A DNA stretch of 64,000 nt from a bacterium (GCA_046331705.1 JAXLQJ010000007.1:1-64000), one strand, 5' to 3'; shown: positions 7,871-54,509, counted from the first letter of the stretch. The notes: generated from the sequence alone by a model not told the origin. A program made the numbers and translations.

Positions 7871-10038
7871 GCCGGACCCAGCCCAAGCCGCATCCCGATC
7901 TCGCCAGCCTCGACTACGCGCCCCGAGTGGCGCCCGCCGCCGCCTCGCCCGCGGTGGCGAGCGATCCCTGGCACACCGCCGAGGAGATCGCGGTGAAGGC
8001 GCTCTATACCGAGGGCGACCGCGCCGGGCTCGAGCACCTCGACTACCTCTCGGGCCTCGCGCCGTTCCTGCGCGGCCCCTACGCGACGATGTATCTGGAA
8101 CGGCCGTGGACGATCCGCCAGTACGCCGGCTTCTCCACCGCCGAGGAATCGAACGCGTTCTATCGCCGCAATCTCGCCGCCGGGCAGAAGGGGCTCAGCG
8201 TCGCCTTCGACCTCCCCACCCACCGCGGCTACGACTCCGACCACCCGCGGGTGATCGGAGACGTGGGCAAGGCGGGAGTGGCGATCGACTCGATCCTCGA
8301 CATGAAGATCCTGTTCGATCAGATCCCGCTCGGCGAGATGTCGGTGTCGATGACCATGAACGGCGCGGTCATCCCGATCCTGGCCAACTACATCGTCGCG
8401 GCCGAGGAGCAAGGAGTGGCCACCTCCCAGCTCACCGGCACGATCCAGAACGACATCCTCAAGGAGTTCATGGTCCGCAACACGTACATCTATCCGCCCG
8501 AGCCTTCGATGCGGATCATCGCGGACATCTTTTCCTACACCGCCGAGCACATGCCGAAGTTCAACTCGATCTCGATCTCCGGCTACCACATGCAAGAGGC
8601 CGGCGCCTCCGCGGATCTGGAGCTCGCCTACACGCTCGCCGACGGTCTGGAATACCTGCGCACCGGTCTCGCCACGGGCTTGAAGGTCGACGAGTTCGCG
8701 CCGCGGCTCTCGTTCTTCTGGGCCATCGGCATGAACTTCTTCATGGAAGTGGCGAAGATGCGCGCCGCGCGGCTCTTGTGGGCGAAGATCGTCCAGCAGT
8801 TCCAGCCCAAGAACCCGCGCAGCCTGTCCCTGCGCACCCATTGCCAGACCAGCGGCTGGAGCCTCACCGAGCAGGACCCGTACAACAACGTGGTGCGCAC
8901 CACCATCGAGGCGATGGCCGCCGCCCTCGGCCACACCCAGTCGCTCCACACCAATGCCCTCGACGAGGCCATCGCGCTGCCCACCGATTTCTCGGCGCGC
9001 ATCGCCCGCAACACCCAGCTGGTGCTCCAGGAGGAGACGGATTTCACCAAGACCGTGGATCCGTGGGGCGGGAGCTACTACGTCGAGAAGCTCACCCACG
9101 ACCTCGCCCACCGTGCGTGGGACCTGATCCAGGAGGTCGAGAAGCTCGGTGGGATGGCCAAGGCGATCGAGGACGGCTTGCCCAAGATGCGGATCGAGGA
9201 GGCGGCGGCCCGCAAGCAGGCGCGCATCGACGCCGGGCTCGACGTGATCGTGGGCGTCAACCGCTACCCGGCGAAGGACGACGTCCCGCTCGACATCCTG
9301 GAGATCGACAACTCGGCGGTGCGCGAGGCCCAAGTCGCGCGCCTCGCCAAGCTGCGCGCCGAGCGCGACTCCGCGAAGGTGGACGCGGCGCTGAACGCCA
9401 TCACGCGCGCTGCCGAGACGAAGAGCGATAATCTCCTCGCGCTGGCCGTCGACGCCGCCCGCGCCCGCGCCAGCGTGGGCGAGATCTCGCTGGCGATGGA
9501 GAAGGTCTACGGCCGGCACGAGGCGACCTTGCGCGTGATCTCGGGTGTCTACCGCGCCGAAGCGCAGAGCACGGACGCGTTCCAGCGGGTGCGCGAGAAG
9601 GCTGCGCGCTTCGAGCGCGAGCACGGCCGCCGGCCGCGCATCCTGGTCGCCAAGATGGGACAGGACGGTCACGATCGCGGCCAGAAGGTGATCGCCACCG
9701 CGTTCGCCGATCTGGGCTTCGACGTGGACCTGGGGCCGCTCTTCCAGACCCCCGAGGAGACCGCGCGCCAAGCCATCGAGAGCGACGTCCACCTCGTCGG
9801 CGTGAGCTCCCAGGCCGGTGGGCACCGCACGCTGGTGCCGGCGCTCATCGACGAGCTCGCCAAGCACGGGCGCGAGGACATCGGCGTGGTGGCGGGAGGC
9901 GTGATTCCGGCCAAGGACTATGCCGCGCTCGAGAAGGCGGGAGTCGTGGCGATCTTCGGGCCCGGCACCGCGATCCCGGCGGCGGCGGAGGCGTTGCTCG
10001 ACGAGGTCGAGAAGCGACTCGCCGGCGGCTCGGCGTAG
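7867..10038 (+). CDS. scpA: Methylmalonyl-CoA mutase large catalytic subunit (MutB/ScpA)
   Basis: [11 protein letters not shown] (Tyr specificity residue), [20 protein letters not shown] (DxHxxG B12 ligand motif). Confidence 0.97.
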
Positions 10039-20726: not shown

Positions 20727-20772
20727 TCGTGGCTCCGATACGATGGCACTCGCTGGAGGCGCATCGTGTGAT

Positions 20773-20820
20773 GTGACAGTTAATGGTGACACTATTAATC
20801 GTGACACCACGAACTGTCAA
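20773..20820 (-). promoter_or_regulatory. Promoter/operator of the desaturase-merR operon
   Basis: AT-rich patch; TTGACA on the minus strand at 20820-20815; three GTGACA direct repeats (20773, 20786, 20801); inverted repeat TGACAGTT (20774-20781)/AACTGTCA (20812-20819). Confidence 0.7.
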
Positions 20821-20873
20821 GCTCGCGCCTCCCGCCGAGCCAGCGCCGCAACGCCTGCTACGCTCGGCGGCCC

Positions 20874-21557: not shown

Positions 21558-21619
21558 AACGCCGCCGGGCTCTAACGCCGGCTCACGGCGCGCGATACCT
21601 CACGCGCGGGCCGATCCGA

Positions 21620-24194: not shown

Positions 24195-26063
24195 ATGAAG
24201 ATTTTCGTTGCGATCCTGGGGTTGATCCTCTGCACCGCGTGTGAACCGGGCCAGCCCTCCGCGGGCATCCGCATCCCCTTCGCCACGGGGATCGCCTTCC
24301 CGGCCGAACCGCTCGGTCGTGGTCTCGCCAACCCCAAGGAAGTGATCGCGTCCGCAGACGGACGCATCGTGTGGGTGCTCGAGCGCGGAGCCGGGCGACT
24401 GGCGCGCATCGAGGTCGCGACGGGCACGCTCACGCGCCATCGCGCGCCGGATGGCCGGCCGATCACGCACCTGCGCGCGAGCGAGGACCGATCCACGCTG
24501 CTCGCGGTGTCCGGCGTTCCCGCCGGCGATCCGTCCGGGGCCTACACCTCGTTCGGCGCGAGCCCCGCGACGATCTGGCGCGTGGACGCGGCGAGCGGCG
24601 AGCTCACGCGCGTCTCCGACGTCGCGTCCGTGGCCGGCTTCTTCCTCGCGCTGGACGGCTCGACGTACCTCGACACCTCGCGCGGCATCGAGCGCGTCGC
24701 GATCGCGACCGGAGCGCGGGAGACGCTACAGGCGTGCGACGGTGCCATCGCCGAGCTCGTCGACCCGAGCGGCCGGTTCGTCGCCTGGCACACCACGCAC
24801 GACCCCGTCGGCATCCACGACAGCACGTACGAGGAGCTTCGCGTCTGCGATCGCGCCACTGGCACCACACGCACCACCGGTGTACCCGCACGCGAGCTGC
24901 TCTCCTTCGCTTGCGGCGGGCGCTGGCTCGTTCGTCCGGCCACGGGCTTTCCCGCCGACTCGCCCATCGAGCCCCATCGCTACGCGCTCTTCGACGTCTA
25001 CGATCCCGCCACGCTGGAGCGCGTCGCGAGCTACTCCACGGCGACGCCACCGGCGTTCACGGGCCCGATGGGACCCGTGACCACCGATGCGGCGTGCGAG
25101 CGCGCGTGGTTCGCGGTCCCCACGGCGGTGGTCGAGTACGCGCTCGCGACCCGCACGCTGACGTCGCTGGGCACCGCGGCCGGGCCGATCGGCGGCGTGC
25201 TCGCGCGTGACACGCCGTCCTCGCTCCTGGTGACGACCGACGAGGACGTCGGCGTTGGAGTGGAGGTGCTCGACCTCAGCACCGCCGAGCTCCAACCGGC
25301 GTGGTCGCGCCACTCGTTCGGAACCCCGAACGGAATGGCGTGGCGATCCGACGAGCGTGAGCTGGTGCTCGGGTTCTCCGCTCACTACCAGGACCTCTAC
25401 CCGGTCGAGATCTACGACTGGAGCGAGATCCAGCGCTACGCGCCGCTCACCGACGAGCTCGTCACCGGAGACTCCACTCGAGACACGGTCATCGGCGGCC
25501 TCGCCGCGTGCGATGCGAGCGGTGAGCTGCTCGCCTGGACGAAGCTCACCGACGGCGAGACGCCGGAGCTCGCGCACGTCGAGGGGACGACACTGGTTCG
25601 CGACCGGGCGGGTCCGGTTCGCACGGCAGCGGAAGACGTGGGCATCCCCGCGCCGTTGGTCGGACAGGGCATTCCCATGGTCGCGAGCGCTGACTGCCGC
25701 TCGGTGTACTTCCTGAACGGCGAAGTGGTGCGGCTCGATCGCGCGCGGAACGTGCTCCACTCGCTGGCGGCGGCCGGCGTGGTCGACGCCATGGCGCTCG
25801 ATCCCAGGCAGGACGCGCTGCTACTTCAAGACGGCGATGACCTGGCCGCGCTCGACCTGGTGAGCGGCGAGCGCTGGCCGATCGCGACCGGCGTCCCCCG
25901 CTCGCGCGCGCTCTTCGTCACGCCCGAGGGCCAGCTGGTGCTGGTGGGCGACGAGGAGCTGGCGATCGGCGTGATCGACCTGGTGAGCGGAGACGCGCGC
26001 CGCGTGTGGGAGGGACACGGCAAGCTCGGGCGGTGGTACCGGGACTTCGACGTCTTCCCGTGA
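24195..26063 (+). CDS. Hypothetical lipoprotein, probable beta-propeller
   Basis: MKIFVAILGLILCTA-C lipobox; repeated blade-like motifs (SADGRIVWV, DPSGRFVAW, DLVSG twice). Confidence 0.7.
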   Translation: MKIFVAILGLILCTACEPGQPSAGIRIPFATGIAFPAEPLGRGLANPKEVIASADGRIVWVLERGAGRLARIEVATGTLTRHRAPDGRPITHLRASEDRSTLLAVSGVPAGDPSGAYTSFGASPATIWRVDAASGELTRVSDVASVAGFFLALDGSTYLDTSRGIERVAIATGARETLQACDGAIAELVDPSGRFVAWHTTHDPVGIHDSTYEELRVCDRATGTTRTTGVPARELLSFACGGRWLVRPATGFPADSPIEPHRYALFDVYDPATLERVASYSTATPPAFTGPMGPVTTDAACERAWFAVPTAVVEYALATRTLTSLGTAAGPIGGVLARDTPSSLLVTTDEDVGVGVEVLDLSTAELQPAWSRHSFGTPNGMAWRSDERELVLGFSAHYQDLYPVEIYDWSEIQRYAPLTDELVTGDSTRDTVIGGLAACDASGELLAWTKLTDGETPELAHVEGTTLVRDRAGPVRTAAEDVGIPAPLVGQGIPMVASADCRSVYFLNGEVVRLDRARNVLHSLAAAGVVDAMALDPRQDALLLQDGDDLAALDLVSGERWPIATGVPRSRALFVTPEGQLVLVGDEELAIGVIDLVSGDARRVWEGHGKLGRWYRDFDVFP

Positions 26064-26125
26064 GCAGGAGCGCGATCCGCGAAGGGGTGGCGACGCCTGC
26101 GCGCGACGCATGTACCTTTCGTCCC

Positions 26126-27058
26126 ATGGACACCACCGTCACCCCCTCCCAGTCGGAACCGCGTCCCTCGTTGCTGAGCCGCGGGGGCTATGCGGGTGTG
26201 CTGCTCGCCGCCCTCTTGGCCACGGCGTTGCTGCTGCGCATGGGCTGGGCGGCTGGCTCCGCCACCGGCTCCGTGGTGTTCGTCACGGCGCTCGTCCTCG
26301 GCCTGCTCGAGGTCTGGTCACCCCACAGTGCCGCGTGGCGCTTGGAACGGCAGAGCTTCGTCGTCGACCTCACGCACACCCTCGTCACGGCGTACGTCGT
26401 GGCGCCAGCGGTGCGCGCGACCCTCGCGGTGGCGTTCGCGGATTTCGGCACGAAGCTCCTCTACGGCACGGGCACGACTCCCTGGCCACACCACTGGCCG
26501 CTGGTGCTGCAGGTGGCGCTGGCGGTGGTCATCGCCGATTTCGGGGCCTACTCGGCCCACCGATTCATGCACGCGACGCGCATTGGTTGGCGGATCCATT
26601 CGGTCCACCACTCGCCGCAGCGCCTCAACTTCCTGGCCTCGGCCCGGTCCCATCCGTTCAACGTGATTCTCACGTTCAGCGTCGAGAACGGCCCGCTCAT
26701 CCTGCTCGGCGTCTCACCGCAGGTGCTCGCGTTCTGGACGGTGATCAAGGCCGTGAACGGCTTGTTGCAGCACTGCAACGTGGAGCTGGCCGCGGGTCCG
26801 CTCAGCCGCGTGATGGCGACGCCGGAGGTCCACCGCTGGCACCACTCGGTGGTGCTCGACGAGTCGAACCGGAACTTCGGCAACACCACGATGCTGTGGG
26901 ATCAGCTCTTCGGCACGTATTTTCGGCCCACGGATCGTCGCCCGGGAACGACGGTCGGCGTCTCGGGCGCGCTGATCCCCGAGCGCTACCTTTCCCACCT
27001 GGCAACGCCGTTCCTGCTCGACCGCTTCGAGCGCGACGCGGTCGCCGTCACGCGCTGA
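26126..27058 (+). CDS. Sterol desaturase/fatty-acid hydroxylase family protein
   Basis: His boxes HRFMH, HSVHHS and HRWHHS; NFG...WDQLFGT. Confidence 0.9.
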   Translation: MDTTVTPSQSEPRPSLLSRGGYAGVLLAALLATALLLRMGWAAGSATGSVVFVTALVLGLLEVWSPHSAAWRLERQSFVVDLTHTLVTAYVVAPAVRATLAVAFADFGTKLLYGTGTTPWPHHWPLVLQVALAVVIADFGAYSAHRFMHATRIGWRIHSVHHSPQRLNFLASARSHPFNVILTFSVENGPLILLGVSPQVLAFWTVIKAVNGLLQHCNVELAAGPLSRVMATPEVHRWHHSVVLDESNRNFGNTTMLWDQLFGTYFRPTDRRPGTTVGVSGALIPERYLSHLATPFLLDRFERDAVAVTR

Positions 27059-27106: not shown

Positions 27107-27478
27107 TCAGCGAGAAGGAACGCTCAGGTAGTAGATGGTGATCGCGACCACCTGGCCGGCGGAGTCGCAGTCGAAGAGATCCATGGCGCGCTGGTCGGGG
27201 ATCGGCATTCCGAAGCCGTTGTCGGCCGGGAACGTTCCCAGCATCTGCTGCGCCACCGTGCTGCCGCCCACCAGCACCGGGCCATCCGCTGCGAGATGCG
27301 TCTTCGCGCGAAACACCGCGTTCTCGTAGAAACCGAGGACCAGGTCGCGGCCCTCGAAGACACCCATCGGGTGGTGAAGCACCACGTGCTCCGCGCAGAG
27401 CTCGCGCAGGGCGTCGAGGCTCTGCGCGTTGATCGCGGCCATGTAGCGTCCCGGCACCGCGGTTCGATCGACCGGCAT
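27107..27478 (-). CDS. NTF2/SnoaL-like protein (ketosteroid-isomerase fold)
   Basis: 123 aa; YMAAINAQSLDAL...HPMGVFEGRD...FY...DLFDCDSAGQV pattern; RBS GGAGG. Confidence 0.7.
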   Translation of the reverse strand: MPVDRTAVPGRYMAAINAQSLDALRELCAEHVVLHHPMGVFEGRDLVLGFYENAVFRAKTHLAADGPVLVGGSTVAQQMLGTFPADNGFGMPIPDQRAMDLFDCDSAGQVVAITIYYLSVPSR

Positions 27479-27515: not shown

Positions 27516-28769
27516 TCAGCGCGCGCCCACCAGGCGCACCGGCATGTGGCGCATGCCGATGAATTTGTTGGTGCGCATCCACTCCACGTCGCCGGTCCGC
27601 TCCACCCGTTCCACGCGGCCGAGGATCTCCTCGAAGACCACGCGGATCTCGAGGCGCGCGAGCGACGCGCCGAGGCAGAGATGAGGCCCGGCGCCGAAGG
27701 CCAGATGATCGTTGGGTGCGCGCTCCAGATCGAAGCGAAAGGGATCCGCGAACACCGATTCGTCGCGATTCGCCGACGCGTACCAGACCGTCACCTTCTC
27801 GCCGGCGCGCATCGCCTGCCCTCCGACCTCCGTGTCGCGGCTGGTCGTACGCCGGTTGTAGGCCGTGGGCGTGCTCCAGCGCAGCATCTCCTCCACCGCC
27901 GTGGGCATGAGGCGCGCCGGCTCGGAACGGAAGCGATCCCAGCTCTCGGGGCGCTCGAGGAGCGCCAGCATCCCACCGGCGATGGCGTTGCGCGTGGTCT
28001 CCGAGCCAGCGGTGATGAGCAGCACGAAGAAGAGGTCGATCTCGATCGCGTCGAGCCGTCGTGCGGTGCCGTCGTCGTCCGGCAGCTCGGCGTGCACCAG
28101 GACGCTCAGGATGTCGTCGCCCGGTGCGGAGCGTTTGCGCTCGACCAGCTCGTGCGCGTACGCGAACGCCTCCATCGCCGCGGCGCGAGCGCCGGCGATC
28201 TCGCCCGCGCTCTCGCCGGCCTCGTGATCGGTGAACGCGTTGGCCCACGCGAAGAGCCGATGGCGATCCTCCTGGGGCACGCCGAGGATCTCGGCGATCG
28301 CCTGCAGGGGTAACTCCGCGGCGACCTCCACGACGAAGTCGCAGGCGCCCTGCGCCAGCACGCGGTCCAGGATGCGCCGGGTGCGACCGCGCAGCCCGGC
28401 CTCGAGCGCCGCGATCATGCGCGGCGTGAAGCCTTGGTTGACGAGGCGCCGAAAGCGCGTGTGCGCCGGCGGGTCCGTCATGTTGATCATCTGCCCCGGG
28501 CCTTCGCCGGGTCGGTAGTCGACGAGCGTGGTGCCCCCGCCGGCGCGGCCCGGGCCGCCCTCGGAGGAAAACGTCCGCGGGTCGCCGAGCACGCGCTTGG
28601 CGAGGGCGTGGGAGCTCACCACCCAGAAGCCCTCGCCGCCCGGCGCTCGCGGCGTCGGCGGGTGCCACCACACCGGCGCCTCGCGTCGCAGCGCCGTGAA
28701 GTGCGCGTGCGGGAAGCCGTGCTCGAAGCGATCGAGATCGGTGAGGTCGATCGCGTCGAGCGACGTCAT
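27516..28769 (-). CDS. Cytochrome P450 (CYP124/125/142-like)
   Basis: INMTDPPAH, AGSETTRN, EEMLRW, SANRDE, FGAGPHLCLG (heme Cys). Confidence 0.95.
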   Translation of the reverse strand: MTSLDAIDLTDLDRFEHGFPHAHFTALRREAPVWWHPPTPRAPGGEGFWVVSSHALAKRVLGDPRTFSSEGGPGRAGGGTTLVDYRPGEGPGQMINMTDPPAHTRFRRLVNQGFTPRMIAALEAGLRGRTRRILDRVLAQGACDFVVEVAAELPLQAIAEILGVPQEDRHRLFAWANAFTDHEAGESAGEIAGARAAAMEAFAYAHELVERKRSAPGDDILSVLVHAELPDDDGTARRLDAIEIDLFFVLLITAGSETTRNAIAGGMLALLERPESWDRFRSEPARLMPTAVEEMLRWSTPTAYNRRTTSRDTEVGGQAMRAGEKVTVWYASANRDESVFADPFRFDLERAPNDHLAFGAGPHLCLGASLARLEIRVVFEEILGRVERVERTGDVEWMRTNKFIGMRHMPVRLVGAR

Positions 28770-28782: not shown

Positions 28783-29622
28783 TCAGTGGGCGAGGAGCTT
28801 CGCGAGCTCGTCGAGGCGCGGCATCACGGCGTCACGCGCCTCCGAGGGGATGCGAAGCACGACCTCGTCGATGCCCAGCGATCGGTAATAGTCGAGCTTG
28901 CCGGGGCTCGGCAGCGTGCCGAAGGGCACGATGCGGATCGCCTTGGGATCCCGCCCGCGCGCTTCCACCGCCTCGTGCAGCTGGGGGATCAGCTCGCGCA
29001 CTCCCGCGCCGCCGATCGGGATCCAGCCATCGCCGTACTCGGCGATGTGCGCGAAGAGCTTGGGACCGCCGCCCCCACCCAGGAGAACCGGCACGCGCGG
29101 CCGCTGCAGCGGCTTGGGCCACGACCAACAAGGCGGGATCTTCACGTGGGTGCCCTGGAACTCGGCCACGTCGTTCGCCCACAGCGCTTGCATCGCGAGC
29201 ATCTTCTCGCGCGCGATCTCGCGGCGCTCCTTGAACGCCACACCGTGGTCTTCCATCTCGTCCTCGTTCCAGCCGAAGCCGATGCCGAGCACGGCACGTC
29301 CTCTCGAGAGGACGTCGAGGGTCGCGACCTCCTTGGCGAAGACGATCGGGTCACGCTGCGCCACCAACGCGATGCCGGTTCCGAGCACGAGCTTCGAGGT
29401 CGCCGAGGCACACGCCCCCAGCGCCACGAACGGGTCGAGCGTGCGCTTGTACTCTTCCGCGAGCACCGCGTCCCCGGTGGGCGGCGGGGTACGGCGGCTG
29501 GTGGGGATGTGGGTGTGCTCGGGGATGTAGAGCGAATGGAAGCCGCGGGCCTCGGCTTCGCGCGCCAGCTCGACCACGTCCATGCACTGGTCGGTGGCGA
29601 AGATCGTGATCCCGAGCTTCAT
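28783..29622 (-). CDS. LLM-class, probably F420-dependent oxidoreductase (Rv2161c-like)
   Basis: PEHTHIP, LDPFVAL, AKEVATLDVLSRGR, GFGWNEDEM, WPKPLQ, YGDGWIP. Confidence 0.88.
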   Translation of the reverse strand: MKLGITIFATDQCMDVVELAREAEARGFHSLYIPEHTHIPTSRRTPPPTGDAVLAEEYKRTLDPFVALGACASATSKLVLGTGIALVAQRDPIVFAKEVATLDVLSRGRAVLGIGFGWNEDEMEDHGVAFKERREIAREKMLAMQALWANDVAEFQGTHVKIPPCWSWPKPLQRPRVPVLLGGGGGPKLFAHIAEYGDGWIPIGGAGVRELIPQLHEAVEARGRDPKAIRIVPFGTLPSPGKLDYYRSLGIDEVVLRIPSEARDAVMPRLDELAKLLAH

Positions 29623-29672
29623 GCGGAACCCGCCTTCCGGACGGCGCTCACCACGCTCGGCGAGGCCGCGCC

Positions 29673-29701
29673 TTTACACGATTTCGGTGGATCAATACAC
29701 T
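29673..29701 (+). promoter_or_regulatory. Sigma70-type promoter of the SDR/MaoC/ACAD operon
   Basis: TTTACA (29673-29678), 17-nt spacer, TACACT (29696-29701). Confidence 0.7.
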
Positions 29702-29713
29702 CGCAGCGCAAAG

Positions 29714-29727
29714 TGAAACGTGTTCTA
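29714..29727. promoter_or_regulatory. KstR-type operator
   Basis: TGAAACGTGTTCTA matches TnnAACnnGTTnnA exactly and lies between the -10 box and the ATG at 29736. Confidence 0.75.
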
Positions 29728-29735
29728 TTTTCGTC

Positions 29736-30518
29736 ATGACCGTCAAGCCGCCGCCCTATCCCGCTGGCCACCGATTGCTCGCCGGCAAGACCGTGCTGGT
29801 CACGGCTGCCGCGGGCACGGGAATCGGGTTCGCGGCGGCGCGGCGCGCCGCCGAAGAGGGCGCGCGCGTGATGATCAGCGACATCCACGAGCGGCGACTC
29901 GCGGAAGCCGCCCAGGAGCTCGAACGGCTGACCGGGACGCGTCCGCCGACACGGATCTGCAACGTCACCGAGGAGGCGCAGGTTCGAGCCCTCGTGGACG
30001 CGGCGATCGAGGCGCTCGGCCACGTCGACGTGCTCGTCAACAACGCCGGCCTCGGCGGCAACGCGCCACTCGTCGACATGACCGACGATCAGTGGAACGC
30101 GGTGATCGGCATCACGCTCACCGGCACCTTCCGGATGATGCGCGCCACCTTGCCGCACATGTATCGGCGCGGGACCGGCGTGATCGTGAACAACGCGTCG
30201 GTGCTGGGGTGGCGAGCGCAGCCGCTGCAGTCGCATTACGCCGCTGCGAAGGCGGGCGTGATGGCGCTCACGCGCTGCGCGGCGCTGGAAGCGGCCGAGC
30301 ACGGTGTGCGCATCAACGCCGTGGCGCCCAGCCTCGCGACCCACAAGTTCCTGACCAAGGTCATGCCGGACGGCCTGCTCGAGGAGCTGGAGCAGAAAGA
30401 GGCCTACGGCCGCGGCGCGGAGCCGTGGGAGGTGGCCAACGTGATGATGTTCTTGGCCAGTGACCTGTCGAGCTACCTGACCGGCGAGGTTCTCGCCGTG
30501 AGCAGTCAGCATCCGTGA
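29736..30518 (+). CDS. ipdF: SDR oxidoreductase, IpdF/Rv3559c-like (steroid C/D-ring, HIP-CoA catabolism)
   Basis: GHRLLAGKTVLVTAAAGTGIG, ISDIHERRL, NNASVLGWRAQ, YAAAK, GRGAEPWEVA and terminal VSSQHP, as recalled for IpdF. Confidence 0.85.
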   Translation: MTVKPPPYPAGHRLLAGKTVLVTAAAGTGIGFAAARRAAEEGARVMISDIHERRLAEAAQELERLTGTRPPTRICNVTEEAQVRALVDAAIEALGHVDVLVNNAGLGGNAPLVDMTDDQWNAVIGITLTGTFRMMRATLPHMYRRGTGVIVNNASVLGWRAQPLQSHYAAAKAGVMALTRCAALEAAEHGVRINAVAPSLATHKFLTKVMPDGLLEELEQKEAYGRGAEPWEVANVMMFLASDLSSYLTGEVLAVSSQHP

Positions 30519-30528: not shown

Positions 30529-30981
30529 ATGGTGAACAAGGCGGCCCTCGGCGCGACCGGGACACCGTTCGTCCTCGACGTGGAGCGCGGCAAGATCCAC
30601 GAGTTCGCCGCGGCCACCCACTCGAGCCACCCCGCCTACTTCGAGGGCGATCATCCCGTCTGCCCGCCGACGTTCCTGACCACGGCGTTCTTCTGGGAAA
30701 CACGCGTTCCCGGCAGCAACCCGTGGCAGCAAGTCGAGATGGACCCGAAACGCGGCATGCACGCCGAGCAAGAGTTCGTGTTCCACGGGCCACCGCCGCG
30801 CGCCGGAACCCGCCTGGTCGGCACCTCGCGGATCGAGAGCATCTTCGAGAAGCAGGGCAAGCGCGGCGGCACCATGACCTTCGCGGTGATGGTCACCGAG
30901 TGGCGCGACGAGTCGGGCAAGCTCGTCGCCGAGAGCCGCCTCACCGGCGTCGAGACCGCGAAGTCGCCCGAGGAGAGATGA
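30529..30981 (+). CDS. MaoC/FAS1-type hot-dog dehydratase partner subunit
   Basis: VERGKIHEFA, PPTF, MHAEQEFVF, GGTMTF. Confidence 0.85.
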   Translation: MVNKAALGATGTPFVLDVERGKIHEFAAATHSSHPAYFEGDHPVCPPTFLTTAFFWETRVPGSNPWQQVEMDPKRGMHAEQEFVFHGPPPRAGTRLVGTSRIESIFEKQGKRGGTMTFAVMVTEWRDESGKLVAESRLTGVETAKSPEER

Positions 30982-30984
30982 GCG

Positions 30985-31401
30985 ATGAGCGCCTCGTGGG
31001 ACTCGCTCGTGGAGGGCCAGGGGCCCGAGCCCTGGACCGTGGGGCCGATCACGCTCACGGACGTGGTGCGCTATCAGGGTGCCTCGGGCGACTTCAATCC
31101 GATCCATCACGACACCGATTTCGCGCAGGCCTCGGGCTTCAGCCGGCCGCTCGTGGTCGGCATGTTCCAGGCGGGCGTTCTCAACACCTACGGCGCCAAC
31201 TGGCTGGGTCCCGAGAACGTGCGGCGAACCAAGGTGCGCTGGAAGACGCCGCTCTTTCCCGGCGATCTCGTCACCTGCACCGGCAAGGTCACGCGGAAGT
31301 ATGCGGAGTCGGGTGAGCGACGCGTGGACGTGGAGCTCGTCTGCGCGACGCAGACCGGCGCCATCGCCGTCGAAGGCACGATGACGTTCGTGGTCCCCTG
31401 A
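30985..31401 (+). CDS. MaoC-family (R)-hydratase/dehydratase
   Basis: YQGASGDFNPIHHD (DxxxxH catalytic motif); PLFPGD. Confidence 0.9.
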   Translation: MSASWDSLVEGQGPEPWTVGPITLTDVVRYQGASGDFNPIHHDTDFAQASGFSRPLVVGMFQAGVLNTYGANWLGPENVRRTKVRWKTPLFPGDLVTCTGKVTRKYAESGERRVDVELVCATQTGAIAVEGTMTFVVP

Positions 31402-31460: not shown

Positions 31461-32642
31461 ATGGACTTCGCGTTCACCGAGGCCGAACAACAGTTCCTCG
31501 CCGACGTCGACGAGTTCATCGCCGCGAACCGCTCGCCCGACGTGATGGACGTGACGCGCGAGAACATGGCGCAGCTCGTCGACACACCGCCGCGGCGCGC
31601 GCTGATGGGCAAGATCGGCGCGCGCGGCTGGCTGGGGCTCACCTGGCCGCGCGAGCACGGCGGGAGCGCGCAGAGCGGTGTCTACGAATACCTGCTCAAC
31701 GAGCGTCTCGCGCGGGTCGGCGCGCCGCAGATCGGCAAGGGCGTCGGCATCATCGGCAAGACCCTGATCCGCCACGGGAGCGAGAAGCTCAAGCGCGAGT
31801 TTCTGCCCAAGATCCTGCGCAACGAGATCGAGTTCGCGATCGGCTACAGCGAGCCGCAAGCCGGCTCGGACGCCGCGAACATGCAGTTGCGCGCCGTTCG
31901 CGAGGGCGACGGCTGGCGGCTCAACGGCCAGAAGATCTTCACCACCTCCGCGCATTTCGCCGACTGGTATTGGGTGGGTGCCCGCACCAACGTCGACGTC
32001 CCCAAGCACGCGGGCATCACGCTCTTCCTGCTGCCGATGAGATCGCCCGGGCTCACCGTCCAGTCCATGCCCACCATCGGCGACGAGATCACCAATCAGG
32101 TGTTCTTCGACGACGTCCACGTCGGTGACGATTACCGGGTGGGCGAGCTCGATCACGGATTTCAGTACATCTCCGAAGCGCTCGACCTCGAGCGGTTCAC
32201 GATGTTCACGTTCTCGCCCATCGAGGCGCGCGTCGAGCTCTTGTGCGAATGGGCCCGCACCGCCACCCGCGACGACGAGGCCATCAAGGACGATCCGTTG
32301 GTGCGCAGTCAGATCGCCAAGCTGGTCACCGAGACCGAGGTCGCGCGGGTCCTCGGCCTCAAGTTCGTGAACGCCGCGATGAAGGGCGGCGCCGCACCCA
32401 CCATCGAGGCCTCGACCTACAAGCTCTACGCCACCGAGCTCTCGAAGCGCGTCGCCGATGCCTCCATGGACCTCGCCAGCCCCGGCAGTCAGCTTCGCGT
32501 CGGCACCGACGACGCGCCGATGAAGGGGCGCGCCGAGAAGACCTATCGCTACACCGTCATCGACACCGTCGGCGGCGGCGCCTCCGAGATCCAGAAGAAC
32601 ATCATCAGCCGCCGCGGGCTGGGTCTGCCCCGGAACTACTGA
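31461..32642 (+). CDS. Acyl-CoA dehydrogenase, catalytic subunit (FadE26/FadE29-like)
   Basis: FAIGYSEPQAGSD, NGQKIFTT, PKHAGIT, LDLERF, GGGASEIQKNII, LGLPR. Confidence 0.92.
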   Translation: MDFAFTEAEQQFLADVDEFIAANRSPDVMDVTRENMAQLVDTPPRRALMGKIGARGWLGLTWPREHGGSAQSGVYEYLLNERLARVGAPQIGKGVGIIGKTLIRHGSEKLKREFLPKILRNEIEFAIGYSEPQAGSDAANMQLRAVREGDGWRLNGQKIFTTSAHFADWYWVGARTNVDVPKHAGITLFLLPMRSPGLTVQSMPTIGDEITNQVFFDDVHVGDDYRVGELDHGFQYISEALDLERFTMFTFSPIEARVELLCEWARTATRDDEAIKDDPLVRSQIAKLVTETEVARVLGLKFVNAAMKGGAAPTIEASTYKLYATELSKRVADASMDLASPGSQLRVGTDDAPMKGRAEKTYRYTVIDTVGGGASEIQKNIISRRGLGLPRNY

Positions 32643-32717: not shown

Positions 32718-33890
32718 ATGATCGGATCCACGGTTCGGCTCGACGGTGTGACGGTGCTCGATCTGGCGAGCGTCGGCCCGGCCGCGCGCGCCTCGCGCAT
32801 CCTCGCCGACTACGGCGCCACCGTCGTCAAGGTCAGCCCCACCGCCAAGAAGGGCGCCGTGCAGATCGAGCCGCCCTTCTTCAGCTACGGCGCAGGCCGG
32901 GGCATGAAGCGCGTTCGCATCGACCTCAAGGCACCCGAGGGCAAGGAAGCCTTCCTGGCCCTCGCCCGCACCGCCGACGTCGTGATCGAGAGCTATCGTC
33001 CCGGCGTGGTCGCGCGCCTCGGCATCGGCTGGGAGGCGCTCGAGCGCGTCAATCCGCGGGTGGTGCTGTGCTCGACGAGCGGCTACGGCCAGGACGGTCC
33101 GCGCGCCGCTTGGGCCGGTCACGACATCAACTACCTCGCCGCGGGTGGCTATCTGCACTGCTCGGGTCGGCGCGCCGACGGTGGGCCCGCCATCCCGGGC
33201 GCCACCGTCGCGGATAGCGCGGCTGGCGGCATGCACGCGGTCATCGCCATCCTCGCGGCGCTGCTCGAGCGCGAGCGCACCGGGCGCGGCGCGTGGCTCG
33301 ACGTGTCGATCGCCGATGGCGTCTTGCACCTCATGTCGCTCCACGTCGATCGATTCCTCGCCACCGGTGAGGAGCCGGGCCCCGGCGGCGACATCCTGAC
33401 GGGACGATACGCCTGCTACGACGTCTACCGCTGCCGCGACGATCGCTGGATCTCGGTGGGCGCCATCGAGCCCGCGTTCTTCGCGAATCTCTGCAGGGCG
33501 CTGGGCTGCGAGACCTGGATCCCGCACCAGCTCGACGACGCCAGGCAGGACGAGATCCGCGCCGCATTCGGTGCCGCGTTCGCGACCCGCGAGCGTGATG
33601 CGTGGATCGCCGAGCTGGCGCCCAAGGACACCTGCGTGGCGCCGGTGAGCACCATTCCCGAGGTCGCGTCCGATCCGCAGTTCGCTGCCCGCGGCGCCTT
33701 CACCGACGCCGAGCACCCCAAGCGCGGATCGTTCCGCCAGGTGAGCGAGGTGCTCGCCGGGAGACGCGCCGCGTTGCCCACGCACACCGTCCGCTCCGCC
33801 ACCGAAACCGACACCGCCGCGCTGCTCGCCGCCGCCGGCCTCCCGAGCGACCGGATCGAGGCACTTCGCCAAGCCGGCGCCATCGAGTGA
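32718..33890 (+). CDS. CaiB/BaiF family III CoA-transferase, alpha-methylacyl-CoA racemase-like
   Basis: LADYGA, ADVVIESYRPGV, GYGQDGP, GHDINY, VADSAAGGM. Confidence 0.88.
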   Translation: MIGSTVRLDGVTVLDLASVGPAARASRILADYGATVVKVSPTAKKGAVQIEPPFFSYGAGRGMKRVRIDLKAPEGKEAFLALARTADVVIESYRPGVVARLGIGWEALERVNPRVVLCSTSGYGQDGPRAAWAGHDINYLAAGGYLHCSGRRADGGPAIPGATVADSAAGGMHAVIAILAALLERERTGRGAWLDVSIADGVLHLMSLHVDRFLATGEEPGPGGDILTGRYACYDVYRCRDDRWISVGAIEPAFFANLCRALGCETWIPHQLDDARQDEIRAAFGAAFATRERDAWIAELAPKDTCVAPVSTIPEVASDPQFAARGAFTDAEHPKRGSFRQVSEVLAGRRAALPTHTVRSATETDTAALLAAAGLPSDRIEALRQAGAIE

Positions 33891-33911: not shown

Positions 33912-34427
33912 ATGTCCGAGCCCCTGCCCGAAGAAGTGAGATCCTGGATCGATCAGATCCGCTACGAGGAAGAGCCCGAGTTCGAGATCGAGAAGGGCTA
34001 CGTCTACTCGAGCTGCTCGTCGACCCAGAACGGCAACCCCCTCTTCTGGGACGAGACCGTCGCCCGCGAGATCACCGGCGGGCTCATGACGCCGCCCTCG
34101 ATGCTCTCGGTCTGGTTTCGCCCGCACCACTGGGCTCCCGGCCGCACCAAGCAGCGCCTGCCGCTCCAGGTCCACTTCGACCTCAAGGAGAAGCTCGGCC
34201 TGCCGGAGGCGGTGATGACCGACAACGAGGTCGTCTTCTACGAGCCGGTGCGTCCCGGCGACAACCTGCGCACCCACCAGATCCTGCGCTCGGTGAGCGA
34301 TCTCAAGAAGACCAAGCTCGGCCTGGGACGCTTCTGGGTGATCGACGTCGAGTACTTCAACCAACACGACGTGATGGTCGGCAAGGAGATCTACACCGGC
34401 CTCGGCTACCGGCGGGGGAGCGCATGA
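33912..34427 (+). CDS. MaoC-like hot-dog subunit (ChsH2 N-domain-like, no DUF35)
   Basis: GNPLFWDE, TPPSML, PVRPGD, KKTKLGLGRF. Confidence 0.8.
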   Translation: MSEPLPEEVRSWIDQIRYEEEPEFEIEKGYVYSSCSSTQNGNPLFWDETVAREITGGLMTPPSMLSVWFRPHHWAPGRTKQRLPLQVHFDLKEKLGLPEAVMTDNEVVFYEPVRPGDNLRTHQILRSVSDLKKTKLGLGRFWVIDVEYFNQHDVMVGKEIYTGLGYRRGSA

Positions 34428-34999: not shown

Positions 35000-36145
35000 A
35001 TGGATCTCGAGTTCAACGACGAACAGAACATGCTGCGCGACATGGTGCGCGGCGTTTGTGACCAGTACGCGTCGCTCGCCGCGCTGCGAAAGCTCGAGGA
35101 CGATCCCGTTGGGTTTTCGCCGGAGCTGTGGAAGAAGCTGGGCGAGCTCGGGGTTCTCGGTCTGACGCTGCCGGAGGCGTACGGCGGCTCGGGCCAGTCG
35201 GCCCTCGAGGCGGTGGTGGTCTACGAGGAGTTCGGCCGCGCGCTCGCTCCCTCGCCTCATTTCGTGAGCTGCGTCGCGAGCGCCGGCGCGATCCTACGCG
35301 CCGGGAGCGAGAGCCAGAAGCGGGCGTGGCTGCCCAAGATCGCCTCGGGCGAAGCGATCCTGACCCCGGCATGGCTCGAGCCCGATCGCGGTTACGGCCC
35401 CAAGGGGGTCCAGCTTCGTGCCCGAGTCGACGGTGACACCGTGGTCCTCGACGGCGTGAAGCGTCACGTGCTGTTCGCGTCCTCCGCCGCGCGCTTGGTG
35501 GTGCTGGCGCGCAGCGGCGACGCGCCGGAGGCGATCGATCTGCTGCTGGTCGACCCTACGAGCCCGGGCGTCACCCTCGTCCAGCAGCGCACGCTGGGCT
35601 CCGACTGCCAATACCAGGTTCGCTTCGACAACGTGCGCGTCCCCGCGGCGGATCGCATCGGCGGCGCCGGCAGCGGCTGGGCGACCTGGCACGACACGCT
35701 CCTGGAAGGAATCATCTACCTCGCCGCGCAGTCCGCCGGCGGCGCCGAGCGGGCGCTCGAGATGACCAACCACTACGCCAAGATTCGCGAGCAATTCGGC
35801 AAGCCGATCGGCGCCTTCATGGCGATCGCCCATTACCTCGCCGATTGCGCGACGCTGGTGAGCGGCGGGCGAACGCTGGTGCACGAGGCGGCGTGGGCGC
35901 GCGCCACCGGCCGTCCCATCGAGCGACTGGCGCCGATGGCCAAGCTCTTCGCCTGCCAGATGTTCCGCGACGTCACGGCCAAGGCCGAGCAGATCCACGG
36001 CGGCATCGGCTTCACCATCGAGCACGACATCCAGCTCTACTTCCGGCGCGCCAAGCAATGGCAGCTCTCGTGGTGGGACTCGCGCTATCTCGAGGAGCTG
36101 GTGGCGCACACCGTGCTCGACGCGCCCACCCCCTGCATCGTCTGA
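35000..36145 (+). CDS. Acyl-CoA dehydrogenase, partner subunit (FadE27/FadE28-like)
   Basis: EEFGRALAPSP, REQFGKPIGAF, QIHGGIGF, QLYFRRAK; lacks the SEPxxGSD motif. Confidence 0.9.
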   Translation: MDLEFNDEQNMLRDMVRGVCDQYASLAALRKLEDDPVGFSPELWKKLGELGVLGLTLPEAYGGSGQSALEAVVVYEEFGRALAPSPHFVSCVASAGAILRAGSESQKRAWLPKIASGEAILTPAWLEPDRGYGPKGVQLRARVDGDTVVLDGVKRHVLFASSAARLVVLARSGDAPEAIDLLLVDPTSPGVTLVQQRTLGSDCQYQVRFDNVRVPAADRIGGAGSGWATWHDTLLEGIIYLAAQSAGGAERALEMTNHYAKIREQFGKPIGAFMAIAHYLADCATLVSGGRTLVHEAAWARATGRPIERLAPMAKLFACQMFRDVTAKAEQIHGGIGFTIEHDIQLYFRRAKQWQLSWWDSRYLEELVAHTVLDAPTPCIV

Positions 36146-36997: not shown

Positions 36998-38302
36998 ATG
37001 CTCGATGCGGTGGTGATCGGCGCGGGAATGGCGGGAATCACGGCGGCACGCGAGCTGGCGCGGCAAGGCCTCTCGGTGCGCGTGCTCGAGGCACGGGATC
37101 GGGTGGGTGGTCGCGTGTGGTCGATCCGCGATCTCGCGGACGATCCCATCGAGGCAGGCGCCGAGTTCGTCCATGGGGTCGGCGCAGCCACCTGGCCCGA
37201 GGTCCGCGCTGCGGGAGTGGGCACCCGCCCCACACCCAACATGCGCGGCTTCATGTTCAACGTGGGCGGCAAGACCAACTGGCTGCCGCTGATCCTCCTG
37301 CACCCCGAGATCTGGCCCACGTTCCCCATCCTCCAGCAGATCCGGCGCGTGCGTCCCCCCGACATCACGGGACGCGAGTTCCTGGACCGCAAGGGCTATC
37401 GCGGCCGCGGGCGCGCCCTCGCCTCGATGGTGCTCACGGCGCATCTTCCCGCGAGCATCGACGAGGTCGGGCTGCTCGGTCTGGTCGACGATGGCGTCGT
37501 TCACCTCGAGAGCGGCGTGAACCACCGCGTGGCCGGCGGCTACGACGCGGTGATCCAGTTCATGGGGAAGGAGCTCGAGATCACCCACGGATTCGCCGTG
37601 GATTCCGTGCGCTGGGCACGCGAGCGCGTCACGGTGCGCAGCACCGCCGGCGAGGAGATCCAGGCGCGCACGGCGATCACCACCCTACCGGTCGGCGTGC
37701 TCAAGTCGGGCCGGATTCGATTCGAGCCCGAGCTGCCCGAGTCGAAACGATCGGCGCTCGACCGCCTGGTGATGGGTCCGGTGAGCAAGATCCTGCTCGC
37801 GTTTCGGGAGCCGTTCTGGCCCGACGCGCTCAACACCCTCGCCTGTGCCGTCGGCCCGGTCACGCTCTTCTGGAACGTGTTCTACGGCGCCGGTCGGCGC
37901 CCGCCGGTGCTCACCGCCTACTTCACCGGCCCCCGGGCGGCCCACGTCGCATCGCTCGGCGACGACGCGGCGCTCGAGCTGGTGCTCGCGGATCTGGTGC
38001 GCCATTTCCCGAAAGCCCGGCCACGCGAGCTCTTGAGCGGGTTTCGGCGCATCGATTGGTCGAACGATCCGTTCGCGTGCGGCGGCTACACGTTCCTGCG
38101 GCCGGGTGGCGTCGGTGCTCGCAAGGACCTCGCCGCGCCCAACACCGGCGCCCTCTTCTGGGCCGGCTCCGCCACCGAGTCGACGCCCATCGCCGCAACC
38201 GTCGAGGCCGCCTACCTGAGCGGCAAGCGCGCCGCGCTCCAAGCGCTGGCGCTTTCCAGCAACCAGGTGCCGAGCGCCTTTCCCGACGACCGCACTCGCT
38301 GA
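36998..38302 (+). CDS. Flavin-containing amine oxidase family protein
   Basis: VIGAGMAGITAA, LEARDRVGGR, EAGAEFVHG, ITTLPVGVL, WSNDPFACGGY; RBS GAGGAGAGG. Confidence 0.9.
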   Translation: MLDAVVIGAGMAGITAARELARQGLSVRVLEARDRVGGRVWSIRDLADDPIEAGAEFVHGVGAATWPEVRAAGVGTRPTPNMRGFMFNVGGKTNWLPLILLHPEIWPTFPILQQIRRVRPPDITGREFLDRKGYRGRGRALASMVLTAHLPASIDEVGLLGLVDDGVVHLESGVNHRVAGGYDAVIQFMGKELEITHGFAVDSVRWARERVTVRSTAGEEIQARTAITTLPVGVLKSGRIRFEPELPESKRSALDRLVMGPVSKILLAFREPFWPDALNTLACAVGPVTLFWNVFYGAGRRPPVLTAYFTGPRAAHVASLGDDAALELVLADLVRHFPKARPRELLSGFRRIDWSNDPFACGGYTFLRPGGVGARKDLAAPNTGALFWAGSATESTPIAATVEAAYLSGKRAALQALALSSNQVPSAFPDDRTR

Positions 38303-51639: not shown

Positions 51640-52850
51640 TCGCCGGCGTGCGGCGGCGGAGGCCGTCGGCGTCACGGAGGGTCTGCGCGGGGCGAGCGCT
51701 AGGCCGCCACCAGGCATCGGCAGCCGATCAGGCCCCGCGGACGTCGGTTCTGGACGTTGTACTTCGCCCGCAGGCACCAGGTCGCGCGCGCGCGAGCAGC
51801 ACGTCCAGAAGAGAACGTGAGTGTCTCGAGGCGCGCGAGCATCAGGCCCAGGCAATGGTGGATGCCGCTGCCGAACGAGAGATGGTCGTTGTCGCAGACG
51901 CGGTCCACGAGGGTCCGGTCAGCTCGGCGAAGACCCGCGGGTCCGCGGTTGCCGGCGGCGATGGTGAGCATCACCCGCGCATTCGCGGGGATGGTCTGGC
52001 CATGAAGCTCGATCGGTCGCGTGGTCTCGCGGAAGAAGCATTTCGAGGGCGGCCCGAAGCGCAGCATCTCCGCCGCGCCCGGCGAGCTCCTCAGCGCCGC
52101 GCGCTGGCTACGAGCTCATCAGGTTGGCCATCAGCGCCAGGAGCGCATTGCCCAGAAGGTTCGTGGTGGTCTCGTTGCCGGCGATCAGGAGCAGGATGCA
52201 GAAGTGGGCGGCTTCCTTGTCCGTGAGCGCCTCGCCATCGCCGGCCTGGGCCACGCGCGTAGTCGGGTCCTCGCGGGCCGTGCGCCGCTCGCGCACCTTC
52301 GCGTGAAGTAGTCGTTGAGCGCCGAACGGCGGTGCGCCTTTCGACCTCGGCATCGAGTGCTGTGGCGACGCCCTCGACCATCGGAATGGACAGCGCTTGA
52401 ACTGGGCGAGGTCGCCGTCGGGATGCCGAGCATCTCCACGATGACCTGGACAGGCAGCGGCAGCGTGGCTCGGAACGCATCGAACAGGGCACCATCAGCG
52501 TGCCGAGGCCGAATCAGCTCCTCGCAGATCGCGCGGATCCCGCCCCCAGGCCTCTTCGATCGCGCGGCGCGTGAAGACCGCCTGGACAGCGATGCGGCGC
52601 AAGCGGGTATTGCTTGGGCGGATCCGTGGCGATCAAACCCGGCTGGAAGCCGAGCTCGGTGAAGTTGCCCGCGCCGAGGAGTACGTCTGGTGGTCGCGAA
52701 ACGCCTCGCGCACGTCGGCGTAGCGCGTCAGCACCCAGTAGCCGCGCCGGGCGACGTGATAGAGCGGCGCCTCGTCGCGCAGGCGCGCGTACCAGAGGTA
52801 CAGGTCCGCGACGACGGCCGCATCGAAGGATCGAAGTCGAGCAACGCTTG
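51640..52850 (-). pseudogene. Cytochrome P450 (frameshifted)
   Basis: YARLRDEAP, TDPP, LLIAGNETTTNL, EMLRF, HLSFGSGIHHCLG. Confidence 0.85.
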
Positions 52851-52898
52851 AGCCCCCGAACGCCGTGATTCAGGCCGTTGACGCCTTGACGCGCCAAG

Positions 52899-52934
52899 TA
52901 GAACATGTTTCATTTTGGAAGGAAACCGGTTCGA
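52899..52934. promoter_or_regulatory. KstR-type operator(s) in a divergent promoter region
   Basis: TAGAACATGTTTCA (52899-52912) matches TnnAACnnGTTnnA; GGAAACCGGTTCGA (52921-52934) has one mismatch; TTGACG hexamers at 52878 and 52886. Confidence 0.72.
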
Positions 52935-53021
52935 CCTCACCTCGCGTTCGTACCCAAAATCAGGCGCTTTTCGTTCCTCCACCCGAAGTTCCGCTGGAAC
53001 GCGTTCCCGGCGAAGGCTCCG

Positions 53022-54070
53022 ATGGCGAAGGAGAATCGCTCCACACCCCGTTCTGCGAGATGTTCGGGATCGAGTACCCGATCATCGCCTTCACCCACTG
53101 CAGGACGTGGTGGTCGCGGTCACCAACGCCGGCGGCTTCCTCGGTGCTCGGCGAGGCGATGCACACGCCCGACGAGATCTCGGCCGACATCAAGTGGACC
53201 GCGATCGCATCGGTTCCAAGCCCTTCGGCGTGGATCTCGATCCTGCCGGTGCTGCTCGCGGGCGGTCTGGACGAGCTCCAGTCGAAGATCCCCGACGGCC
53301 ACCGCGCCTACGCGAAGATGATCCACGAGAAGTACGACGTGCCGGCGCCCAAGGGCAAGAGGCGCTTCACCAATGGGGCGAGGCTCAATCAGCAGATGGC
53401 GCGCGCCCAGCTCGAGATGCTGCTGGAAGAGCAGGTGCCGCTGCTCTCCAGGCCTCGGCAACCCGGCGTTCATCGATGCCGCTCATGCCCGCGGCATCAA
53501 GGTGTTCGGGCTGATCGGCAAGACTCGTCAGGCCAAGCGTGAGATCGAAGCGGGTGTCGACGGCATCATCGCCCAGGGCTTCGACGCCGCAGGCCACACG
53601 GGCGAGATGGGCACCTTCAGCATCGTGCCGAAGGTCGTCTCGGTCGCCCAGGGTCGTCCCGTCATCGCGGCTGGTGGTGTGACCGGGCCGTCACCTGGCC
53701 GCCGCGCTCTGCCTGGGCGCCGCAGGCGTGTGGACCGGCACGCTCTGGCTGGCGTCGCGCGAGAGCGACGTCGACATGATCATCAAGGAGCGGCTGATCG
53801 CCTCGAGCGCCGAGGACACCGACCTCGAAGTCGATCTCCACGACGATGCGCGTGCTCAAGTGCCCATGGACCACCGAGTGGAAGAAGCCCGAGGCCCCCG
53901 CCCCGCTACCGGCGCGCCTATCAGATGCTCCTCAGCTCGCCGTATCCAGGGCGCCAACGACAACCGCCGCGGTGACCTCGCGGCCGGAGGCTGGCCGGCC
54001 AGGGCGTGAGCTTCGTGACGGCCATGAAGCCGGCCTTGGATCGTCTGGACGTCGTCGACGGGCGCTCTGA
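53022..54070 (+). pseudogene. Nitronate monooxygenase/FabK-family flavin oxidoreductase (frameshifted)
   Basis: FGIEYPIIAFTHC, VTNAGG, IIAQGFDAAGHTG, VIAAGG, VWTGTLWL. Confidence 0.82.
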
Positions 54071-54509
54071 CCTTCGAACCTCACCGGCGGCGACGAGTGA
54101 CCGTGACCGAGTCGCAGCAACCGACGTATGCGGCCGTGCCCGGCTTCGACGCGAGCGTCGCCGGCAAGCGCGCCGGAAATGCGACGGCGAGCGGCCCGTC
54201 CTGGGAACGCGCTACGCGGGGCAGGAGTTCTCGGGACGCTGAGCGGCGATTACGTCGACCACGGCGATCCACCGTGGCGCTGGTATTTGCTCCGCGACCT
54301 CAAGCGAAAGCCGGACAACTACGCCAACGAATGCGTCGTGGTGCAGAATCGGGCAGCGTCTTCCTGGTCGACGAGCCCAACCGCGTTCAGGAGCGACCGT
54401 GACCAGCATGGCAGTCGTTCCCGGTGGCGCGGCCCCGGCGCAACGAGTGCCCCGACCGATCGGCCCGACCAGCCAGCGACCGGCAGCCTCGAATCCTGGA
54501 GATCAACCC

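Follow-up and report, generated by a model that had tools for sequence, protein, structure and literature searches.

A putative KstR-type operator, its candidate TetR repressor and a predicted sterol/lipid catabolic regulon in an uncultured diderm bacterial phylum

KstR is known as an actinobacterial regulator of the TetR family. We examined a palindrome resembling its operator in a 64,000-nucleotide stretch of bacterial DNA (GCA_046331705.1, JAXLQJ010000007.1:1-64000; the window hereafter), where the original prediction had placed such a site within positions 29673-29735. The palindrome TGAAACGTGTTCTA at 29714-29727 is very probably the operator of a KstR-type TetR protein encoded at C2:305294-305968 in the same genome, and would belong to a sterol/lipid catabolic regulon with 24 independent sites distributed over about 21 promoter regions. 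Across the genome the motif is strongly enriched, it lies in the 5' regions of steroid and lipid catabolic genes, it is conserved in related genomes, and it co-occurs with the regulator. A candidate for the repressor that had been supposed to lie elsewhere in the genome was found as a single KstR-like gene. In the passages of Kendall 2007 (PMC1995591) that describe the mycobacterial system, the KstR operator is TnnAACnnGTTnnA, taking the form TAGAAC(N2)GTTCTA in the repressor's own promoter, and kstR orthologues are given for mycobacteria and Nocardia, with a possible 32% relative in Streptomyces. A full-text literature search, which did not cover subscription journals, returned no report of a KstR regulon outside Actinobacteria, and neither "myxo" nor "Deltaproteobacteria" is mentioned in Bergstrand 2016.

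The segment under study extends from the -35 box through the base preceding the ATG, at 29736, of a short-chain dehydrogenase/reductase (SDR) gene that opens a plus-strand operon (Table 1). A promoter scan of 29400-29900 returned a single sigma70-like match, with 0.0 expected from shuffles of the region. The palindrome begins 12 nt past the -10 box, and 8 nt separate its end from the ATG; given a start site 6-8 nt past the -10 box, the operator would occupy approximately +6 to +19. Exact matching and the promoter scan thus confirm the predicted position of the operator just downstream of a sigma70 promoter. Open reading frames (ORFs) called with GC3 guidance and then searched against Pfam likewise place it, as had been described, in a divergent gap, between a minus-strand unit of a luciferase-like monooxygenase (LLM), a P450 and a SnoaL/NTF2-like gene and a plus-strand unit of SDR, hotdog, MaoC and acyl-CoA dehydrogenase (ACAD) genes.

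Phylogenetic footprinting supports this assignment. The -35 box and AAGTGAAACGTGTTCTATTTTCGTCATG, a 28-nt block that runs from the AAG flank across the operator as far as the ATG, do not differ among the five aligned genomes; the -10 box reads TACACT in four of these and TAAACT in the fifth, the spacer varies, and in one genome (G005) the sequence upstream of the -35 box is unrelated. SDR orthologues with 88-92% identity are present in all five relatives, and promoter and operator are both kept in the four for which upstream DNA is at hand. Because the -35/operator block is conserved while the spacer and upstream DNA vary, the promoter-operator unit is assigned to the SDR operon; the operator may also act on the divergent LLM-P450 unit.

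The surrounding genome is a metagenome-assembled genome (MAG) of 8.17 Mb, with 70% GC, 95.7% completeness and 2.57% contamination. Site numbers were compared with expectations from analytic Markov models of orders 1, 3 and 5. A loose form of the motif matched 54 times, against 9-16 expected, and for the strict form T(AG/GA)AAC-RY-GTT(CT/TC)A the count was 26, with 0.03-0.06 expected. In the same genome, four control palindromes matched for composition occurred 0, 0, 1 and 0 times. Once two duplicates are removed, 24 independent strict sites remain, on 13 contigs. Placement also separates the two forms. Gaps or 5' ends account for 22 of the 26 strict sites, and the other four fall early in longest-ORF calls, before the Pfam domains start, so that they probably lie upstream of the true starts within over-extended ORFs. 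The 28 non-strict matches behave as chance, because 18 of them are deep within genes. The bases that flank the core are biased to AAG and CTT (33-43 of 50 half-sites), which extends the site to a 20-bp palindrome with the consensus AAG-T[AG][GA]AAC-RY-GTT[CT][TC]A-CTT.

The candidate regulator is one of at least 40 proteins with TetR_N matches in the genome. It carries both a TetR_N domain and the KstR-type C-terminal domain (Table 1), and its best PDB matches are KstR structures from M. tuberculosis and M. smegmatis (5aqc/3mnl/5cw8; E 5e-21, residues 28-216), followed by an unnamed TetR-family protein (3bjb, 2.6e-16) and then by CprB (4e-8). In a pairwise alignment, 10 of 13 positions in the recognition-helix stretch are identical to those of KstR. 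The next match to the KstR model in the genome scores 48 bits, leaving this gene as the sole strong one. Among 120 listed homologues, two are named "cholesterol catabolism regulator" by the JGI automatic annotation. The gene is the fifth of an operon headed by the site C2:300519, in the order ACAD, ACAD, FadD acyl-CoA synthetase, ERG2-like, TetR and KshA-like. This placement is consistent with autoregulation, as is the site directly upstream of the TetR gene in other lineages. Because the repressor gene lies in an operator-controlled operon, the circuit would feed back on itself. The gene preceding it, a member of the ERG2/Sigma1R family (L004:10156-10791, C2:304655-305290; 229 bits; the sterol C-8 isomerase family), ends 4 nt before the TetR start; a eukaryote-type sterol isomerase fold is found here within a bacterial catabolic operon.

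To judge from sequence matches, the genes next to the sites make up a complement in which the actinobacterial cholesterol cluster can be recognised. Two of the three KshA-like Rieske oxygenases in the genome bear sites (best PDB match KshA, E 9e-44; next family 7e-16), and a KstD-like flavoprotein (576 bits) adjoins another. Further neighbours include P450s, proteins with the ChsH2 OB and zinc-ribbon domains, several ACAD pairs, Ltp thiolases (PRK06059, 698 bits vs 424; PRK07937, 527 vs 419), an EchA19-like hydratase (378 bits, cut-off 400; PRK07799, 421 vs 316), an F420-type LLM of the Rv3520c type (TIGR03559, L003:5916-7001; 433 bits vs 335), a GMC oxidoreductase, aldehyde dehydrogenases and acyl-CoA ligases. 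The cholesterol side-chain and ring A/B functions that mark a KstR regulon are thereby represented by KshA-, KstD-, CYP125/126-, ChsH2-, Ltp-, EchA19- and Rv3520c-type genes. A KstR-type site also occupies the gap between the gene for a FadD3-family ligase (780 bits vs 657) and a divergently oriented gene for a TonB-dependent receptor (L018:12059-16203, C82). The receptor may be an outer-membrane uptake component of the regulon, presumably with a role comparable to that of Mce4 in actinobacteria. Separately, an MMPL/HAE3 transporter with a match to the sterol-sensing domain (L010:8219-10612, C17) lies in an operon downstream of the KstR-type site C17:102627.

This gene content bears on an alternative in which operator and repressor are as described, and the regulon is used for the beta-oxidation of general lipid, branched-chain or isoprenoid substrates, or for the remodelling of the organism's own sterol-like lipids, rather than for the breakdown of external steroids. 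Most site neighbours are indeed of generic beta-oxidation types (ACAD, enoyl-CoA hydratase, thiolase, FadD, SDR), the ERG2/Sigma1R-family gene is coupled to the repressor gene, and a steroid 5-alpha-reductase-family gene lies near the site C2:104770. The mycobacterial KstR regulon itself includes lipid genes, according to parts of Kendall 2007 (PMC1995591), and a search of this 95.7% complete genome with TIGR03213 at E 1e-10 found no HsaC/BphC-type extradiol dioxygenase. Yet the best PDB match of the KshA-like genes is KshA by 28 orders of magnitude, in three copies of which two have sites, and the KstD-like, CYP125/126-like, ChsH2 domain, FadD3-family and Rv3520c-type LLM genes pass or approach curated cut-offs. 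We therefore regard the general-lipid alternative as unlikely.

The link between regulator and palindrome recurs in other lineages. A scan of species-representative genomes yielded 18 loci that encode relatives of the TetR protein. At ten of them, from MAGs with the labels Myxococcota, Deltaproteobacteria, Binatia, Gammaproteobacteria and "Spirochaetales", 12-118 bp separate the palindrome from the TetR match downstream of it; at the two closest loci the palindrome lies 4.7 kb upstream and heads the operon, as in the genome studied here. The neighbouring genes encode a thiolase and an SDR, an ACAD and a ChsH2-like protein, or ligases or hydratases, with the TetR gene preceding the thiolase-SDR or the ACAD-ChsH2-like pair. 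Five of these genomes contain 3-9 sites each, vs 0-1 for a reversed control pattern. These observations speak against the palindrome being a real operator of some other regulator, with the KstR-like protein recognising a different sequence. Such a reading could draw on the many TetR_N proteins in the genome and on the lack of a site directly upstream of the KstR-like gene here, but the consensus is that of the closest characterised relative of this TetR, none of the 39 other TetR proteins tested matches KstR at E 1e-15, the operator C2:300519 heads the operon that contains the TetR gene, and the motif precedes the orthologous gene in the other lineages. Assignment to a different regulator is accordingly very improbable.

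Within the window, TnnAACnnGTTnnA has four matches (8149, 29714, 37871 and 52899), compared with a mean of 0.08 in 100 dinucleotide shuffles, none of which reached four. Two of the four are intragenic, and both were rejected as operators. The first, TCGAACGCGTTCTA at 8149, is a loose match within the mutB coding sequence. The second, TGGAACGTGTTCTA at 37871, is kept in two of five relatives, broken by a synonymous GTG-to-GTC change in two and absent from one. The fourth match, TAGAACATGTTTCA at 52899, agrees with the reverse complement of the first site at 13 of 14 positions, as originally stated, and lies in a duplicated segment of low quality. Positions 42273-82536 of the contig that carries the window (C7) are a reverse copy of the entire contig C63, at 94-96% identity with 558 gap openings vs 764 mismatches. 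Around 52899 the DNA is gap-rich and 92-94% identical to C63, and from about 42.3 to 66 kb, which corresponds to C63:16.5-40.8 kb, the frame with the best coding signal shifts at intervals of a few hundred bases and codon periodicity is halved. Either this part of C7 is a duplicate that was left unpolished or misassembled, or it is a paralogue of C63 undergoing decay. It is rich in indels, and genes in the second half of the window are to be read on C63. On that clean copy the site lies between a P450 and a nitronate-monooxygenase (NMO)/FabK-like gene (best NCBIfam match FabK, 165 bits, under the cut-off), which bears out its description as a divergent gap beside a P450. A second redundancy was found at the end of C67 (36.6-37.9 kb), which copies C4:42.7-43.5 kb at 97.6% over 817 nt around a KstR-type site. 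Two sites thus lie on redundant contig copies, and the genome count was therefore lowered by two.

The genome belongs to a GTDB phylum for which a phylum-level search returned only six species genomes, of 5.5-8.4 Mb, divided between two genera of a single family. All six encode the KstR-like TetR, at 81-93% identity, and contain 20-27 matches each to TRRAACRYGTTYYA, vs 0-3 for a control pattern. Twenty-five unrelated genomes contain 0-5 matches, and a search of them at E 1e-20 yielded no such TetR. The genome studied here encodes LpxC (272 bits; among the control genomes, the four that make lipid A are those with a match), and a TonB-dependent receptor and a FadL-type protein are also encoded; since all three are present, an outer membrane in this lineage is supported, in keeping with the description of the host as outer-membrane-bearing. 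An actinobacterial origin of the contig is excluded, and the genome is not chimeric here. The idea that the matches reflect chance, coding coincidence, or an artefact of assembly or contamination such as an actinobacterial contig, for which the intragenic matches, the poor copy around 52899 and the redundant, slightly contaminated MAG might be cited, is already contradicted and scarcely credible, given 26 matches vs about 0.05 expected over 13 contigs, similar counts in six of six genomes of a phylum outside Actinomycetota, an operator that is invariant between variable flanks, and the outer-membrane genes.

Several observations weigh against an orthodox KstR system. For this organism we infer binding, repression and the ligand from sequence. 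The best NCBIfam match of the TetR protein is the KstR equivalog NF033703, at 124.5 bits, under the 280-bit cut-off, and its orthology to KstR follows best-hit logic, not a tree; by these matches it is KstR-like, a distant relative, not a certified equivalog. Kendall 2007 (PMC1995591) describes kstR, in the part concerned, as divergent from a fadE34-type ACAD gene "in all cases"; here the gene follows ACAD, ACAD, FadD and ERG2-like genes on the same strand, and no operator lies immediately upstream of it. No site is present at five of the 18 related loci, of which one is truncated at the gene and another is a weak match of 32% identity, and one further locus has a site only downstream. The six genomes of the phylum are close kin, and their agreement does not amount to six independent observations. 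A consensus sigma70 promoter was found within 110 nt at only 4 of 25 scanned sites; the spacing of promoter and operator is thus established for few sites, and a promoter architecture common to all sites was dropped for that reason. Finally, with no HsaC/BphC-type enzyme found, the canonical 9,10-seco route of ring opening may not be complete, and the substrate may be something other than a steroid nucleus; cleavage of ring A may be carried out by another enzyme or be absent.

Comparison with KstR (Rv3574/MSMEG_6042; Mycobacterium, Nocardia, Rhodococcus) shows the same core, TnnAACnnGTTnnA, with the same best form, TAGAAC(N2)GTTCTA, insofar as the sites are set out in the source. The regulator is of the TetR family, shares the Pfam domains of KstR and resembles it in the recognition helix, the regulon consists of sterol/lipid catabolic genes (KshA, KstD, CYP125-type P450, ChsH/ChsE-type, Ltp, EchA19-type), self-regulation is indicated here by placement, and some promoters have two sites. 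The differences are that the host is diderm and belongs to a candidate phylum of six species, that the core is flanked by AAG...CTT rather than by the AC...GT of the mycobacterial sites in Table 3 of Kendall 2007 (PMC1995591), and that the operator at 29714-29727 lies just downstream of the predicted start, with no overlap of the -10 box.

The genes marked by the sites also differ. The FadD3-family and IpdC-like genes, whose actinobacterial counterparts are targets of KstR2, carry a KstR-type site here. The KstR2 palindrome, which we take to be AnCAAGnnCTTGnT, differs from the site studied here and is not enriched in the genome (9 observed vs 4.3 expected, 8 of the 9 inside genes). No KstR2-like protein was found among the 39 other TetR proteins compared with NCBIfam, a set that is not exhaustive and a database that may hold no KstR2 model, nor in two PDB checks, and KstR2-type control was rejected on these results. 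As portrayed in sections of Crowe 2017 (PMC5380842), KstR2 (Rv3557c) is the HIP-CoA-responsive repressor of the C/D-ring genes and controls fadD3, ipdF, ipdC and related genes in actinobacteria. The original prediction had named the SDR gene ipdF and had proposed that the wiring differs from that of actinobacteria. The SDR exceeds the cut-off of the equivalog NF005880 (PRK07831; 434 bits vs 336), and its best PDB match is 3o38 (E 6e-90; runner-up 1.7e-45); neither 3o38 nor PRK07831 is labelled as IpdF, the 5-oxo HIC-CoA oxidase Rv3559c/MSMEG_6011, and the SDR gene's neighbours (hotdog, MaoC, ACADs) differ from those given for the ipd genes in the relevant portion of PMC5380842. The proposed difference in wiring finds partial support, in that the FadD3-family ligase and the IpdC-like FabK-type reductase carry KstR-type sites and the KstR2 palindrome is not enriched. 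This arrangement suggests one regulator for both halves of the pathway, on the strength of incomplete searches and unproven orthology.

We propose that a TetR dimer would bind the 14-bp core shortly after the predicted transcription start of the SDR/hydratase/ACAD/CoA-transferase operon, where the bound repressor would block transcription. By analogy with mycobacteria, a sterol- or lipid-derived acyl-CoA thioester may release the repressor; for M. tuberculosis KstR, release by steroid-CoA thioesters is stated in part of a review (PMC6678751). The releasing ligand would be produced by the regulon's own P450s and acyl-CoA ligases.

Table 1. Coordinates of the operators, promoter elements, flanking genes and candidate regulator; positions refer to the window unless a contig is named.
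Feature	Position	Strand	Basis or remark
KstR-like TetR	C2:305294-305968		PF00440 TetR_N 50.9 bits, PF17925 TetR_C_20 50.3 bits
Candidate KstR-type operator TGAAACGTGTTCTA	29714..29727	.	Exact sequence match; AAG left flank
-35 box TTTACA, SDR-operon promoter	29673..29678	+	Promoter scan; invariant in 5/5 aligned genomes
-10 box TACACT	29696..29701	+	Promoter scan; 17-nt spacer from -35
SDR, first gene of operon	29736..30518	+	Pfam adh_short_C2
Hotdog (FAS1_DH_region) and MaoC hydratase pair, order like ChsH1/ChsH2	30529..31401	+	Pfam
ACAD, large-subunit type	31461..32642	+	Pfam, NCBIfam
Family III CoA-transferase	32718..33890	+	Pfam CoA_transf_3, 300 bits
Hotdog protein	33912..34427	+	Pfam
Second ACAD, small-subunit/IpdE2-like; last gene of operon	35000..36145	+	NF050027 IpdE2 153 bits, under cut-off of 450
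F420-type LLM	28783..29622	-	Pfam; TIGR03619 244 bits vs cut-off 167
P450, CYP125/126-like	27516..28769	-	Pfam, PDB
SnoaL/NTF2-like gene	27107..27478	-	Pfam
Second candidate KstR-type operator TAGAACATGTTTCA	52899..52912	.	Sequence match; same locus as C63:29859
P450, frame-broken in this copy	51677..52898 (approximate)	-	Limits inferred from C63 copy, L016:6066-7295
NMO/FabK-like (IpdC-like), frame-broken in this copy	52915..54123 (approximate)	+	Pfam NMO 164 bits on L016:4849-6057
Near-consensus match TGGAACGTGTTCTA	37871..37884	.	In frame inside amine-oxidase gene, encodes WNVFY
Loose match TCGAACGCGTTCTA	8149..8162	.	Within methylmalonyl-CoA mutase gene (mutB); chance-type

PDB matches of the hotdog/MaoC pair include HadB and ChsH1/ChsH2 (E 1e-6 to 7e-10). 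For the large-subunit-type ACAD they are led by 4x28 (E 1.4e-59) and Thermomonospora Tcur3483 (6wy8), labelled only as acyl-CoA dehydrogenases, both of which we take to be steroid side-chain ACADs. On the other side of the gap, the P450 matches best CYP125MRCA, a reconstructed CYP125 ancestor (E 2e-132), followed by CYP126, CYP124 and CYP125 (steroid C26-monooxygenase). The two operator-adjacent LLMs, at 28783-29622 and L003:5916-7001, pass the F420-family cut-offs of TIGR03619 and TIGR03559, respectively, which suggests the use of F420 in this diderm lineage.

Elsewhere in the window, genes for membrane lipid modification precede the locus (19536-27058), including a fatty acid desaturase, a Band 7 protein and an FA_hydroxylase-family gene whose best NCBIfam match, OlsE, falls below the cut-off at 209 bits. 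A B12 mutase cluster (1180-14585) contains a minus-strand, IcmF-like fusion of B12-binding, MeaB and mutase domains, both methylmalonyl-CoA mutase subunits, small and large, and a MeaB GTPase encoded separately.

Together, these observations point to a switch of conventional design in an uncultured lineage where it was not expected, and possibly to an undivided regulon. In a broader and more tentative scheme, which we put forward as conceivable rather than probable, a single KstR-type repressor would govern the entire sterol pathway, including the C/D-ring (HIP) genes, in this phylum and, probably, in Myxococcota and Binatia as well. Such an undivided regulon would be ancestral, or the trace of an old transfer of pathway and control code between Actinobacteria and diderms, and these uncultured lineages with large genomes would be unrecognised environmental sterol degraders. 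A recognisable KstR operator code appears here in an uncultured diderm phylum and is common to Myxococcota and Binatia MAGs. The palindrome may thus serve as an inexpensive sequence-based marker of sterol/lipid catabolic regulons in metagenomes and may lengthen the list of likely environmental sterol degraders, and these lineages would offer a natural comparison for the origin of the split between KstR and KstR2.

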